The notes under the pieces: model-generated | What the model was told of the DNA's origin: nothing | The model's database searches: none | Seen by the model: only the letters and a program-made list of their open reading frames with translations | NCBI GenBank assembly: GCA_045603485.1 | Contig: JAZUMF010000105.1 | Coordinates: 1,903-65,902 of the forward strand | Direction: 5' to 3' | From: Kiritimatiellia bacterium | GTDB lineage: Bacteria; Verrucomicrobiota; Kiritimatiellia; RFP12; JAAYLN01 | Length of the DNA stretch: 64,000 nucleotides | Shown: piece by piece, positions 1,269 through 21,560 of the stretch | Numbering within the stretch: position 1 is the stretch's first letter | How the letters are laid out: each line of letters opens with the position of its first letter | Program-made: the position numbers and the translations under genes

Positions 1269-1688
1269 AAATAAACAAGTGTAATCGTGTGACACTTAAA
1301 GGTTGCTGCTGCAAAGGCGCAGAGATTTTGTGATACCGACTATTTCTTGTGTTAGTATAGGGAAGCTGGGCTATAGTGTCAAGTCTAATAGTCTGACACT
1401 TAAAGGTTGCACTTAAAGGTTGAAAATTTCTCCCGCGGAGAGCGCAGAGAAAATTGTGAGATTTTGTTCCGCACTGTAATCTCATGCGGTGGATGGTGGC
1501 GGACGGAGCAGCCACCGCAGAACTCTTAGAGAGAAACTGAAAAGGCCTGTCCCCTTAAAAGGTTTTCCCGCAAAAACGCTGAGGAATTGCAGCTTGGTTC
1601 TTAAAGGTTATTAGGTGGCAAGTTTGACAGTAAAGACAGTTTGCGAGTTTTACAGTTTTAATTGGTAAGGCCTGTCCCCAGAAAAGTT

Positions 1689-1723
1689 AGTAAATAGGTA
1701 ATAGTAAATAGGTAATAGGTAAT
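1689..1723. repeat. Heptad array (AGTAAAT/AGGTAAT) x5
   Basis: agtaaat aggtaat agtaaat aggtaat aggtaat. The paralogous array at 1947-1988 has 6 units. Confidence 0.85.
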
Positions 1724-1946
1724 AATGAAGAATGAATAATTTTTGTAGTTTTTAGGTTAAGTTTTTTGTGCCTTTTGCGAAGTACACGAAATTGGGAAGG
1801 CCTGTCTCCTTATAAAATTTTATCGCAGAGAATGCAGATAAATTGCAGCTTGGTTCTTAAAGGTTATTAGGTGGCAAGTTTGACAGTAAAGACAGTTTGC
1901 GAGTTTTACAGTTTTAAGTGGTAAGGCCTGTCCCCTTAGAAAAGTT

Positions 1947-1988
1947 AGTAAATAGGTAATAGGTAATAGGTAATAGGTAATAGGTAAT
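1947..1988. repeat. Heptad array AGTAAAT + (AGGTAAT)x5
   Basis: Perfect 7-nt periodicity, one more unit than the array at 1689-1723. Confidence 0.85.
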
Positions 1989-2202
1989 AATGAAGAATGA
2001 ATAATTTTTGTAGTTTTTAGGTTAAAACTGAAAAGGACTGTCCACTAAAAACTTTTACCGCAAAAAACGCAGAGATTTGTGATACCGACTATTTATTGTG
2101 TCAGTATAGTGAGGTTTTGTTGTTGTGTCAAGTGTAATAGTGTGACACTTAAAGGATGAGTCGTAGAATAGGGATAGTATAGGACTCGAAGGGAATATAC
2201 TA

Positions 2203-10730: not shown

Positions 10731-10956
10731 GAAGTAATAATATAAAATTTAAAGAGGAAAAGCAAATGGAATAATGGAGAGTGAAGCCATCATCTCGGCA
10801 AAAAGTGATTTGCCTTTTCATCGCTTGATAAATCCAACATTCTAGACATCTTATTAACGGAAATTTTTTAGTTCTACGACACTGAAAACTATTACGCACT
10901 TACGGCAATCTATACCGAGCGGTATTTATAATGACCGAATAGATAAATATCGGTAT

Positions 10957-11064
10957 CTTACCTTTTACCTCTTACTTCTTACCTTTTACCTTTTACCTTT
11001 CTTTAGGTTTTAGGTAATAGGTAATAGGTAATAGGTTCCGACAATTCGCAAGGCGAATTGGCGG
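10957..11064. repeat. Hairpin element copy A: (CTTACCT-like heptads) - loop - (AGGTAAT)3 - GGTTCCGACAATTCGCAAGGCGAATTGGCGG
   Basis: Direct reading. The left arm is rich in TTACC and the right arm is its complement, GGTAA. The terminal CAATTCGC/GCGAATTG forms an 8-bp stem. Confidence 0.8.
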
Positions 11065-11421
11065 GACACTATGGATACTGCAACACATTTCACTTTTTAC
11101 CTCAATAGGATAAAATTTATGATAGGCGAACTTGAAATCTGCCATTTTCTACACCCATAGATAACACGGCTTTTTTATCATCGCGAACATACATGCAGGA
11201 AGTATGGATTCGATGCCGGATGATATGCTTTCGGCGTTTCCTGCAAGAATCGCTTTTCTCTGTGCGACCAGGGAAGAATCAATTCGCCTTATCGGAATAC
11301 CGCATGCGGTAAACTTATATCCCTTTTGTGAATTTTTCATCAACAACGCCGCAAAATCCAAAAATTCCAATTGCGTCTATCACGTAACAAAAACGAGTTC
11401 GAGACATGAAAACGTGTACGC

Positions 11422-11778
11422 TTATTTCGGATTCAGCTTTTTGAGCGATGCGACCAGGAGACGAATCAGCTCTTCGCAGTCGGTGTAGAGGGACTGATAC
11501 GAATCGCCATCAGGGATGAAACCGGTTTCGTGCAGCAATTCAAGCCAATACAACGTTTCACCGGCTTCTTTGAGTGCGATGGTCTGTTTGGAAATGAAGT
11601 CGTTTCTGGATTGCGCGTACTTGGCTTCCGCCAGATTAGCCCCTATCGACGTGCCGCACCGAAGGATCTGCTTTGACATCGTCGATTCGCGTTTTCCGCG
11701 CAGATATTTATGGAGATTGACGATACGGATGGCAAACGCCTTGGCCTTTGTCAGCATCACCGGGTCGGACATACACAT
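11422..11778 (-). CDS. Four-helix-bundle protein (TIGR02436-type; Avd / 23S-IVS protein family)
   Basis: 118 aa. ...SIGANLAEAKYAQSRNDFISKQTIALKEAGETLYWLELL... matches the conserved core of four-helix-bundle (bAvd-like) proteins. Confidence 0.75.
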   Translation of the reverse strand: MCMSDPVMLTKAKAFAIRIVNLHKYLRGKRESTMSKQILRCGTSIGANLAEAKYAQSRNDFISKQTIALKEAGETLYWLELLHETGFIPDGDSYQSLYTDCEELIRLLVASLKKLNPK

Positions 11779-12107
11779 CTCCTTTCTTAGGAAAACGACA
11801 AACTCCGCACTTCTTACCTTTTACCTCTTACTTCTTACCTTTGTTTAGGTTTTAGGTTAGAGGTAATAGGTAATAGGTAATAGGTTCCGACAATTCGCGC
11901 TTTCCGCGCAGATATTTATGGAGATTGACGATACGGATGGCAAACGTCTTGGCCTTTGTCAGCATCACCGAGTCGGACATACACATCTTCTTTCACAAGA
12001 AAACGACAAACTCCGCACTTCTTACCTTTTACCTCTTACTTCTTACTTCTTACCTTTGTTTAGGTTTTAGGTTAGAGGTAATAGGTAATAGGTAATAGGT
12101 TCCGACA
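11685..12107. repeat. Tandem direct duplication, 208 bp + 215 bp (~93% identity)
   Basis: Units 11685-11892 and 11893-12107 both begin ATTCGCG(T/C)TTTCCGCGCAGATATTTATGGAG. Each contains the 5' 31 codons of the four-helix-bundle gene plus one hairpin element. Unit 2 has an extra TTCTTAC heptad. Confidence 0.85.
11811..11898. repeat. Hairpin element copy B
   Basis: cttcttaccttttacctcttacttcttacctttgtttaggttttaggttagaggtaataggtaataggtaataggttccgacaattcgc. Confidence 0.8.
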
Positions 12108-12122
12108 ATTCGCAAGGCGAAT
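12018..12122. repeat. Hairpin element copy C, abutting the tRNA-Ser 3' end
   Basis: Same element with one extra heptad. It ends in the CAATTCGC-aagg-GCGAATTG hairpin immediately 3' of the tRNA CCA. Confidence 0.8.
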
Positions 12123-12214
12123 TGGCGGAGGGGGTGGGATTCGAACCCACGATGGCCGTAAGACCATGCCTGATTTCGAGTCAGGTACGTTCAACCAGGC
12201 TCCGCCACCCCTCC
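12123..12214 (-). tRNA. tRNA-Ser (anticodon CGA), CCA encoded
   Basis: The reverse complement gives GGAGGGG acceptor pairing with CCCCTCC. The anticodon stem-loop is CCTGA-CTCGAAA-TCAGG with U33 and A37. There is a long variable arm and a GGTTCGAATCC T-loop. Total length is 92 nt. Confidence 0.85.
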
Positions 12215-19469: not shown

Positions 19470-19738
19470 GTAATCTCCTTTTTATATATCAGGATACGAA
19501 ATCAGTTCCATTAAAGATTCGGAACACGCATTCCAATAGAAATCTTTATAAAACCAAATTCGTCTATAGTTTATATTTAGCATAAAGTTTTTGTCAAGTG
19601 ATAATTTCGCATTGTATTGCTACGAATAGCTTTTTTTGCTAATATGCCTTCTCAAGTGACAGGCCTTGCATAAACAATATTGCCAAATACCCCACTTTTT
19701 GGTAATATATTTACTTAAGGGACAGGCATCCAAAACAA

Positions 19739-20455
19739 CAAGGAAAACCAAGAGTCAAGAATATAGTCGAAAGCTACTACCATATAGTAAGCAGATGTAT
19801 CTTCAGTCAGTTTTTGCTGGGGGATACGGATAAAGACATGTTCGTCAAGATGATGCGTACAATAGCCTATTTCAGTGGAATAGATATACTCAACTATTGC
19901 GTGATGGACAACCACTTTCATCTCCTCGTTCATGTACCTGAGCCATCAAAGCCTACAGAAGCACTATTACTAAAACGCATATCCGCACTCTACGGTAGAC
20001 TCCACGCAGCTGACCTTAAGAGCCGCTGGTATGAACTAAAGAAGCAAAACCGACCAGATATTGTCGAAGAAGAGCAGGCGGCATTCATTCGCCGCATGGG
20101 AGATATAACACCATTTATGCAGTGCCTAAAGCAACGCTACTCAGCCTGGTACCGCGCAAGACACGACTACAAACAAGGCACAATGTGGGAAGGTCGTTTC
20201 CGCAGCACACTAGTAGAAGGCACCTCAGAAACCCTCTCCTCAATCTCAGCCTACATCGACCTAAATCCCGTCCGCGCAGGCATAGTAGACGACCCCAAAG
20301 ACTACAAATGGGCAGGCTTTGCCAATGCGCTGAAAGGCGATAGCAAATCAATGGAAGGCATAGCAAAGATGTATGACAAAACAGCTAGTGACACATCCTT
20401 TGCAGATTTGGCGAAAGAATATCGTCTAAAGAAGTCGGAGGCCAAGCGGTCTTAG
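19739..20455 (+). pseudogene. RAYT/IS200-like transposase, degenerate copy (ATG replaced by CAA; 3'-truncated at 20430)
   Basis: It aligns codon-for-codon with the intact copy, but the start is CAA GGA instead of ATG AGA. After ...EYRLK the frame runs into the inverted 3' flank of copy 2, giving KSEAKRS*. Confidence 0.6.
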
Positions 20456-20485
20456 GAAGACAACATTCACACACAACTCCTTGGC

Positions 20486-21343
20486 TCACAGAACGACATG
20501 GCTACGATCCGACTTTGAGCCTATGATGGCGCCGTGTGTGAAGTGGCGTATTTTGCAGCGAAGTATTACCGATAACGGTAACTCGCCTTTTTCATCTATT
20601 ACTTCTTGTACCTTTTCTGGCTCTATTGCATCGGAGCCGCGTACATAGAGTTTTAGACGATATTCTTTTGCCAAATCTGCAAAGGATGTGTCTTTAGCTG
20701 TTTTGTCATACATCTTTGCTATGCCTTCCATTGATTTGCTATCGCCTTTCAGCGCATTGGCAAAGCCTGCCCATTTGTAGTCTTTGGGGTCATCTACTAT
20801 GCCTGCGCGTACGGGATTTAGGTCGATGTAGGCTGAGATTGAGGAGAGTGTTTCTGAGGTGCCTTCTACTAGGGTGCTACGGAAGCGCCCTTCCCACATT
20901 GTACCTTGCTTGTAGTCGTGTCTTGCGCGGTACCAGGCTGAGTAGCGTTGCTTTAGGCACTGCATAAATGGTGTTATATCTCCCATGCGGCGAATGAATG
21001 CGGCCTGTTCTTCTTCGACAATATCGGGGCGATTTTGCTTCTTTAGCTCATACCAGCGGCTTTTAAGGTCAGCTGCGTGGAGTCTTCCATAGAGTGCCGA
21101 TATGCGTTTTAGTAATAGTGCCTCTGTGGGCTTTGATGGCTCTGGTACATGAACGAGGAGATGGAAGTGGTTATCCATTACGCAATAGTTGAGTATATCT
21201 ATTCCGCTGAAATATGCTATTGTACGCATCATCTTGACGAACATCTCTTTATCTGTATCCCCCAGCAAAAACTGACTGAAGATACATCTGCTTACTATAT
21301 GGTAGTAGCTTTCGCCTGCGTTCTTGACTCTTGGTTTTCTCAT
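20486..21343 (-). CDS. IS200/IS605-like Y1 (HUH) transposase, RAYT-like, with C-terminal extension
   Basis: 285 aa with HUH motif HFHLLVH at ~aa 60 and Tyr-containing YSAWYRARHDY at ~aa 135, then a ~135-aa C-terminal extension. Confidence 0.7.
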   Translation of the reverse strand: MRKPRVKNAGESYYHIVSRCIFSQFLLGDTDKEMFVKMMRTIAYFSGIDILNYCVMDNHFHLLVHVPEPSKPTEALLLKRISALYGRLHAADLKSRWYELKKQNRPDIVEEEQAAFIRRMGDITPFMQCLKQRYSAWYRARHDYKQGTMWEGRFRSTLVEGTSETLSSISAYIDLNPVRAGIVDDPKDYKWAGFANALKGDSKSMEGIAKMYDKTAKDTSFADLAKEYRLKLYVRGSDAIEPEKVQEVIDEKGELPLSVILRCKIRHFTHGAIIGSKSDRSHVVL

Positions 21344-21560
21344 TGTTGTCTCCTTGTGGTGAATGTGGCAGACTTTGGGTCTGTCCCTCGGTCAAATATA
21401 TTACCAAAAAAGAAGATGCTTGGCAATAATTTTGTATAGCACTTTCTCGGATGCCTGTCCCCTAGGCAGATATATTACCAAAAAGTGGGATATTTGGCAA
21501 TATTGTTTATATAAGGCCTGTCCCTCAGTAAAGATGTTAGCAAAAAAGGCGGAGCGAATT
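21344..21560. repeat. Three tandem ~60-bp REP-like units upstream of the intact RAYT gene
   Basis: (G)TCTGTCCCTCGG-TCAAATATATTACCAAAAAAGAAGATGCTTGGCAATAATTTTGTAT is followed by GATGCCTGTCCCCTAGGCAGATATATTACCAAAAAGTGGGATATTTGGCAATATTGTTTAT and then AAGGCCTGTCCCTCAGTAAAGATGTTAGCAAAAAAGGCGGAGCGAATTGGCAACATTAATGTG. Confidence 0.75.

Follow-up and report, generated by a model that had tools for sequence, protein, structure and literature searches.

The gap between two convergent genes

We analysed a 64,000-nucleotide stretch of a Kiritimatiellia genome (contig JAZUMF010000105.1; hereafter, the window), in which a gap of ~930 bp (1269–2202) between two convergent genes holds an array of short repeats. 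On the plus strand, a BspA-type leucine-rich repeat (LRR) gene ends with its stop codon at 1268 (Pfam LRR_5, E 3e-43). From the other side, the gene for an 801-aa membrane protein, with only a weak match to DUF6541, runs from 4608 to 2203 on the minus strand. Because the flanking genes converge, the gap is not the promoter of either, in agreement with an earlier reading made from the sequence alone (the sequence-only reading), which had taken the region for something other than a simple promoter. Homologues of the membrane protein that have a named source belong to the Kiritimatiellae, and related loci were present in metagenome-assembled genomes (MAGs) from yak, sheep and other ruminant guts; the source organism is an uncultured member of the Kiritimatiellae from the ruminant gut. 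Exact-protein look-ups for the 801-aa and V-ATPase B open reading frames (ORFs) of the window returned no match, probably owing to the choice of start codon. The G+C content is 33–44% in the LRR gene and the gap, compared with 50% across the window. The plus strand has a GC skew of +0.28 to +0.43 throughout the array (1400–2200), and the array repeat units AGGTAA, ACAGTTTG and GCAGAGA are poor in C.

The gap is a non-coding patchwork of clade-specific repeat modules, with direct repeats far beyond chance expectation. We relabelled its parts as modules alpha, beta, X, C and D. The modules are arranged as follows.

1276–1305, plus: alpha1, the left-hand 30-bp junction box (CAAGTGTAATnGTGTGACACTTAAAGG), immediately 3' of the LRR stop codon
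1313–1379, minus: beta1, leader box GCGCAGAGATTTTGTGATACCGACTATTT and a sigma70-like site (–35 TTGACA at 1382–1377, –10 TATACT at 1359–1354)
1380–1409, plus: alpha2, followed at 1410–1422 by an extra 13-nt copy of its end, CACTTAAAGGTTG
1423–1533, plus: module X, with GCAGAGA-type short repeats, TTGTGAGATTTTGTTCCGCAC and two GC hairpins peculiar to this genome
1534–1583, plus: C1 box, core AAGGCCTGTCCCC at 1542–1554, reading GGGGACAG on the opposite strand
1584–1760, plus: D1 unit, with a link segment, an ACAGTTT-type hairpin arm (D-core 1620–1661), an internal C box (1667–1679), TAGGTAA heptamers and an AT-rich tail
1789–1838, plus: C2 box, core 1797–1809 with one mismatch
1839–2025, plus: D2 unit, 95% identical to D1, with D-core 1876–1917, internal C box 1923–1935, 5.6 TAGGTAA heptamers at 1951–1989 and then an AT-rich tail
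2025–2074, plus: C3 box, core 2033–2045 with two mismatches
2063–2128, minus: beta2, second leader box and sigma70-like site (–35 at 2131–2126, –10 at 2108–2103)
2129–2158, plus: alpha3, right copy of the junction box
2173–2204, minus: 9-bp hairpin GATAGTATA..TATACTATC, at the membrane-gene stop codon, with which it overlaps

The sequence-only reading had described a density of nested repeats, and all the features it listed were found in the sequence, above chance. Its five boxes resembling repetitive extragenic palindromic (REP) sequences correspond to the C core AAGGCCTGTCCCC, which occurs at 1542, 1667, 1797, 1923 and 2033, always on the plus strand and once inside each D unit. With up to two mismatches allowed, this core has nine matches in the window compared with 1.1 expected. 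The motif GTGACACTTAAAGG was present at the three reported sites (1289, 1393 and 2142) and additionally at 1406, giving four copies compared with 0.18 expected. The GCGCAGAGA..TTGTGA box likewise has its three copies, in a long form at 1316 and 2066 and a short form at 1441. The two ~180-bp tandem units reported earlier are real repeats, each pair being 95% identical (1575–1679 and 1831–1935; 1688–1760 and 1953–2025), but the period is 256–265 bp and each repeat contains a box, such that the units are C plus D. The GTGTCA-N12-TGACAC hairpins (1375–1398 and 2124–2147) and the GC-rich hairpins (1470–1490 and 1495–1516) can be read in the sequence, although folding does not exceed that of shuffled sequences. 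The two GC hairpins are not conserved: among the comparison loci, which carry L numbers here, L020 and L024 have unrelated AT-rich sequence instead.

The array showed no sign of encoding a protein. Two ORFs suspected of being spurious proved to be so, as the one at 127–351 sits within the LRR gene in a different reading frame, and the one at 1231–1515 matches no family and is not retained by L024; ORFs differ in general between the window array and the L024 array. The D units contain no ORF of at least 30 aa apart from a single 34-aa TTG ORF across C2 and D2, and no conserved short ORF recurs in each unit as in LDR-like type I toxin or small-peptide repeats. Searches with Rfam 15 at the gathering score identified only a tRNA in the window (12126–12214), and at E≤10 the segment 1150–2350 gave two chance-level hits, neither of them relevant. 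Array segments folded as RNA or DNA were no more stable than shuffled sequences (z = –0.7 to +1).

Several other candidates were dropped. A sigma54 promoter suggested by TGGCAA motifs was ruled out by the spacing and the –12 element in our reading of the sequence. DnaA boxes or a replication origin, a dif site, an integron attC site, a retron, a diversity-generating retroelement and an ORF-less group II intron were also set aside, as matching motifs were absent, neither a reverse transcriptase nor an integrase is encoded nearby, and Rfam gave no hit to intron domain V.

Variation among strains and loci

An empty allele of the locus is present in L004 and L005, two independent metagenome assemblies of the same species from the European Nucleotide Archive. 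Here, the LRR stop codon is followed by AAATAAA, one alpha box and the end of the membrane gene, and the ~850 bp from alpha1 to alpha3 are missing. The membrane protein of both belongs to the 90%-identity cluster of the window's own protein (P0125), and their DNA is 91–99% identical to the window across the compared stretches. We treat the empty allele as real because a repeat of 27–30 bp is not collapsible by k = 141 assembly and because the junction is identical in both assemblies. Strains thus differ by an insertion or deletion of the ~850 bp that separate alpha1 from alpha3. Filled alleles are found in L024, from the same project as L005, which reads alpha1-beta1-alpha2-X'-C-C-D until the contig ends, and in L025, which reaches into beta1. 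Three Logan contigs (L001, L006 and L007) all stop at window position 2126 and carry a TGT specific to the filled-type right junction; the array thus explains why short-read assemblies break at this locus.

The alpha1 of L024 is identical to alpha3 across 27 nt (CAAGTGTAATAGTGTGACACTTAAAGG), so that a single crossover there would yield the exact empty allele. L003, whose membrane gene is ~74% identical, has a shorter gap of 385 bp at the same gene end, holding one C-like box, one D-core and one beta-alpha. The presence of beta-alpha beside the same gene end implies that the right end of the array predates the species, and a deletion is the simpler reading of the empty allele. L003 and the window also share a block of ~300 bp (~2121 to ~2420) at 93–97% identity, compared with ~60–75% in the remaining gene. 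This block spans alpha3, the post-stop hairpin and the last ~70 codons, has no counterpart in L002, and has the appearance of a tract left by recent recombination, with its end at the array. At the more distant orthologous loci L002, L008 and L009/L010, unrelated DNA lies downstream of the membrane gene, which left no alignment for covariation analysis.

The clean empty site invites another explanation, namely that one or more elements integrated here site-specifically and that the region is what remains of them. Alpha would then be an att core that a tyrosine or serine recombinase duplicated on integration, the empty allele would be the unoccupied attB site, and the element itself would since have been largely lost. 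The 30-bp direct repeats stand exactly at both ends, the differences among alpha1, alpha3 and the alpha of the empty allele fit one crossover within CAAGTGTAAT, and similar long direct duplications surround inserts at a tRNA-Ser locus and in L026. However, no recombinase gene lies in or beside the insert, the third alpha is only 104 bp from the first and would require an impossibly small integrated circle, and the alpha pattern was not found in viral contigs. The beta-alpha of L003, from another species, speaks for an ancestral array end and for the empty allele being a deletion. We consider such an integration event very improbable.

Modules of the array recur at other loci and in other genomes, as expected of the array of small mobile elements proposed from the sequence alone. 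Window positions 1295–1689 are colinear with the 2.2-kb contig L020 over ~400 bp at 75% identity; L020 has the order C-beta-alpha-X-C-D-C and lies behind another LRR_5 gene. Module X is also present in L024 and in L029, where C and X modules stand behind an ABC-transporter ATPase gene. In L026 (8933–9180), a ~130-bp mini-element composed of C, a (TTACCT)n/(AGGTAA)n hairpin and C lies between convergent genes and is bracketed by a 56-bp direct duplication of its target, a gene 3' end. In relatives, then, the region is neither conserved as single-copy sequence nor without further copies, observations that would have spoken against the proposal. Within the 285 kb compared, alpha, beta and the C–D link occur only at loci flanking LRR genes.

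A 19-base D-core pattern matched 12 loci in 185,579 species genomes, where we estimate ~4 by chance, and at all 12 the similarity reaches past the search pattern. Ten of these loci are in ruminant-gut Kiritimatiellae MAGs, several from one genome; the remaining two are on short contigs that were assigned to bins of other families, and one of these contigs, L020, bears the same array. Mostly, the D-core at these loci forms the right arm of a long hairpin of tandem 7–8-mers (z = –3.3 in L014), often between a tRNA and a four-helix-bundle gene. The D units of the array therefore look like half-hairpin remnants of these elements. Viral contigs gave no D-core hits, and C-core hits in viral contigs as well as in L027 and L028 were rejected as a phage terminator or chance.

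Some further observations concern these loci. L019 and L020, from GTDB genome records, are short contigs with Kiritimatiellae-type modules in Acutalibacteraceae and Christensenellaceae MAGs, and are probably mis-binned. LRR genes occur in tandem clusters, as seen in L023, L024 and L025. L020 has a ~110-bp repeat ending in TTGGTTTTACCCACACTTTTTAAGG 5' of its LRR genes, with three copies in the contig (30–140, 1940–2050 and ~2090 in the reverse-strand reading); the repeat probably represents a 5' region that tandem LRR genes have in common.

The tRNA-Ser locus of the window (10956–12214) carries a four-helix-bundle gene (PF05635, 11422–11778, minus) downstream of tRNA-Ser(cga). Around this gene are three copies of a tRNA-3'-end-like hairpin joined to a long hairpin of the (TTACCT)n/(AGGTAA)n type, and the 5' end of the gene is present twice owing to a tandem duplication of 208 bp. 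The locus varies between strains: L001 has a CTCTCT/AGAGAG-type hairpin and L004 has the cassette behind tRNA-Ser(tga). In L006, L013, L021 and L022, a paralogous four-helix-bundle gene stands behind an (AAACTGT)n/(ACAGTTT)n hairpin.

At both beta/alpha junctions of the array, the minus strand reads TTGACA-17-TATACT, which scores 11/12 in each case. The site faces the 3' end of the LRR gene, with the membrane gene behind it. In an alignment of five copies (two from the window and one each from L003, L020 and L024), which represent at least three lineages, both hexamers and the 17-nt spacing are invariant, as against 6 of 17 positions in the spacer. The upstream alpha box is conserved and the leader moderately so, with poor conservation in L003. 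This pattern is suggestive of a real promoter. A putative beta1 transcript would extend ~80 nt to the alpha1 hairpin and then reach a T-run (GTTTATTTTT) at the LRR stop codon.

These features raise the possibility, also mentioned in the sequence-only reading, of a locus for a non-coding RNA. In this account, beta1 and beta2 would drive small or antisense RNAs regulating the LRR surface-protein operon from its 3' end, and the repeats would be by-products of duplicating the unit. The near-consensus, invariant hexamers, the predicted end of the beta1 transcript and the position of three arrays behind LRR_5 genes all point this way, and some transcription is plausible. Against it, there is no Rfam match at E≤10, no significant or conserved folding (z = –0.7 and 0.0 for the candidate transcripts compared with shuffles) and poor leader conservation in L003; the alpha hairpin is weak, a terminator scan was negative there, strains with the empty allele do without the whole locus, and C and X modules are found away from LRR genes too. 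We regard a regulatory RNA locus as unlikely.

The box shared with Y1 transposase genes

Outside the array, the C core occurs in the window only at 19.65–19.73 kb and 21.37–21.53 kb, ~18 kb away, on either side of a pair of Y1 transposase genes. None is present elsewhere in the 64 kb, and related genomes have some at other loci. The features of this second locus are as follows.

19655–19731, minus: left flanking inverted repeat, with CCTGTCCC boxes and a weak TATTACCAAA/TTTGGCAATA hairpin
19743–21343: two convergent class-2 Y1 (RayT/TIRYT-like) gene copies, 19814–20455 on the plus strand and 20486–21343 on the minus strand
21376–21530, plus: tandem ~74-bp units, each a C-like box and a weak hairpin, upstream of the right Y1 copy
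21449–21525: right arm of the flanking inverted repeat, within the tandem ~74-bp units

The two arms (19655–19731 and 21449–21525) are terminal inverted repeats of 77 nt with 90% complementarity, and flank a rearranged gene pair, not one intact gene. The pair was made by a 688-nt inverted duplication (19743–20430 and 20652–21339) with 95% identity and 221 nt between its arms. Exact CCTGTCCC occurs six times in the 64 kb, where 1.2 are expected, and all six lie in the array or, in inverted orientation, beside the Y1 genes. A candidate promoter in the units beside the Y1 genes, TTGCCA-17-TAATAT, was reinterpreted as a weak palindrome, its two hexamers being the arms.

The Y1 copy at 20486–21343 encodes 285 aa with the motifs NHFH (H59-F60-H61), WE (W150-E151) and YIDLNP (Y172), and matches Pfam Y1_Tnp (E 1e-14). 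It scored 53 bits with the NCBIfam model for REP-associated tyrosine transposases (REP_Tyr_transpos) and 29 with that for IS200, both below the model cut-offs (80 bits for REP). The copy belongs to a large family of ~325-aa proteins that carries the Joint Genome Institute name 'REP element-mobilizing transposase RayT'. Motifs of the Y---NP type define class 2 of TnpA_Y1, within which the best fit here is to subclasses 2.1/2.3 (Quentin et al. 2018, PMC6006769). Subclass 2.1 has been equated with the TIRYTs (TIR-associated tyrosine transposases) of Di Nocera et al. 2013 (PMC6006769, PMC3733652), whose genes are flanked by inverted repeats that have GGGGWSAS in common.

The C box fits this consensus exactly, reading GGGGACAG on its opposite strand. 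At the Y1 locus, GGGGACAG occupies 21454–21461 of the reverse strand, and versions that deviate by one mismatch start at 19719 and 21517. Upstream of the right Y1 copy it lies on the sense strand, matching the published figure description. The association is repeated in L026 (3892–4420), where a 3' remnant of the same gene has three oppositely oriented GACTGTCCC boxes 200 bp further downstream.

This co-occurrence bears on whether the array could be neutral junk, produced by tandem duplication and slippage on a long 3' spacer in a horizontally acquired, AT-rich LRR island, with no mobility factors or function and with only a coincidental likeness to the Y1-flank box. The low G+C (33–44%, like the LRR gene, in a ~50% genome), the heptamer and octamer microsatellites and the rapid turnover of content between the window, L020, L024 and L003 would all be accounted for in this way. 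By contrast, it would leave the recurrence of modules at unrelated loci in several genomes, the box beside Y1 genes in two genomes and the invariant promoter hexamers to coincidence, and we rate it as improbable.

Interpretation and relation to known systems

We favour the reading that the region is a REP/BIME-like cluster (BIME, bacterial interspersed mosaic element) of TIRYT-associated boxes, set among other clade-specific modules in the terminator zone of convergent genes, and assign it a probability of roughly 55%. The rival explanations weighed above are compatible with this reading, and each was rated lower. By analogy with related enzymes in the literature, and given the co-occurrence of box and gene, we infer that the Y1 enzyme mobilises the boxes. 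This enzyme, or intact paralogues elsewhere in the genome, would seed segments bounded by C boxes on single-stranded DNA. Ordinary recombination between the direct repeats (alpha, 27–30 bp; C, 20–50 bp; beta-alpha, 97 bp) would then enlarge or shrink the array. Such events may have produced the 256-bp duplication of C plus D, and may have removed the whole ~850 bp in sister strains, leaving a single alpha. The two minus-strand sigma70-like promoters, if they fire as we suppose, would produce non-coding transcripts that head for the LRR gene and run antisense to its 3' end.

A number of observations weigh against this reading. Known transposition of the IS200/IS605 Y1 type leaves the target unduplicated, yet the inserts have long direct repeats at their ends (30 bp in the array, 56 bp in L026). 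The five boxes are co-oriented and poor palindromes, and fold no better than shuffled sequences. Alpha, beta, X and D have no demonstrated link to a transposase, and scans with the alpha-box pattern gave no hits in the genome, metagenome or viral collections. Similarity between the array and the Y1 flanks is confined to the 12–13-nt box. The Y1 copies themselves are C-terminally truncated by the inverted duplication, at residues 277 and 231 of the 328 in an intact relative (P0154), and the left copy lacks an ATG. Moreover, subclasses 2.1 and 2.3 were reported to be without identifiable REP-like structures (PMC6006769).

The direct duplications admit a more speculative proposal, which we put forward as a long shot. 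The C, alpha and tRNA-end boxes would be joints of a cassette-shuffling system in gut Kiritimatiellae, in which the large class-2 Y1 enzyme or another partner inserts hairpin-bearing non-coding segments and small gene cassettes into terminator regions. The cassettes would include the four-helix-bundle genes (Avd/23S-IVS-protein family) by tRNA-Ser, and each insertion would make an unusually long target duplication (30 bp in the array, 56 bp in L026 and ~110 bp by the tRNA). If true, the transposition chemistry would have no described precedent among HUH Y1 enzymes.

The cluster reading that we prefer changes no major concept, and its value lies mainly in annotation and strain typing. It provides a concrete, testable case of TIRYT-type repeats, a barely studied branch of REP/RAYT, in an uncultured gut phylum. 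The array also marks a recombination hot spot beside a cluster of genes for surface LRR proteins, with ~850 bp cleanly gained or lost among strains and a ~300-bp tract apparently exchanged between lineages. If the conserved promoter is active, antisense control of surface-protein expression is possible.

Among known repeat families, the pneumococcal BOX (boxA-boxB-boxC) and the enterobacterial repetitive intergenic consensus (ERIC) resemble the array in being built of distinct sub-boxes that vary in number among copies or strains, and in being intergenic, without coding function and perhaps transcribed. Stable stem-loops and more than 100 copies per genome are typical of BOX and ERIC, and neither is related in sequence to the array. 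A miniature inverted-repeat transposable element was rejected: direct repeats of 30 bp stand where such an element would have terminal inverted repeats of 15–30 bp, and none of the latter were found.

The array shares several traits with the REP/BIME/REPIN and RAYT systems of E. coli and Pseudomonas (PMC3116915, PMC3337134, PMC5581495). In both, short extragenic boxes lie at gene 3' ends and between convergent genes, form mosaic clusters with copy-number variation among strains and also flank a Y1 gene. Unlike those systems, the array has no imperfect palindrome tagged with GT[AG]G, no inverted REP pairs (REPINs) and no significant hairpin. A stem-loop from an imperfect palindrome of 20–40 nt is absent, with z = –0.5 to +1.0 for the C boxes and intervening segments. 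The boxes lack GT[AG]G at a hairpin foot, the only GTAG copies (1746 and 2011) being in the AT-rich tail. Inverted pairs are limited to weak AT-rich ones, and all five boxes are on the plus strand. The transposase also differs, having ~325 aa with a long insertion between HUH and Y, where RAYTs have ~150–165 aa.

TIRtrons, the repeats beside TIRYT genes together with repeat families derived from them (PMC3733652, PMC6006769), have in common with our locus a Y1 HUH gene with the class-2 motifs NHFH, WE and Y---NP and inverted repeats with GGGGWSAS (GGGGACAG here). The boxes grouped in the array may correspond to the further repeat copies that TIRtrons have elsewhere in a genome. The array departs from TIRtrons in that its boxes are all co-oriented and interleaved with the unrelated alpha, beta, X and simple-repeat arms, and in that the nearby Y1 genes have undergone rearrangement and truncation. 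Those surveys apparently did not include the host phylum, Kiritimatiellae. No experimental work on TIRYT activity has been described, and binding or cleavage of the repeat is untested for any TIRYT (PMC3733652). Both REP/RAYT and TIR/TIRYT are thus established systems, and what the present locus adds is a member in an unstudied phylum, with an unusual mosaic architecture of direct repeats.

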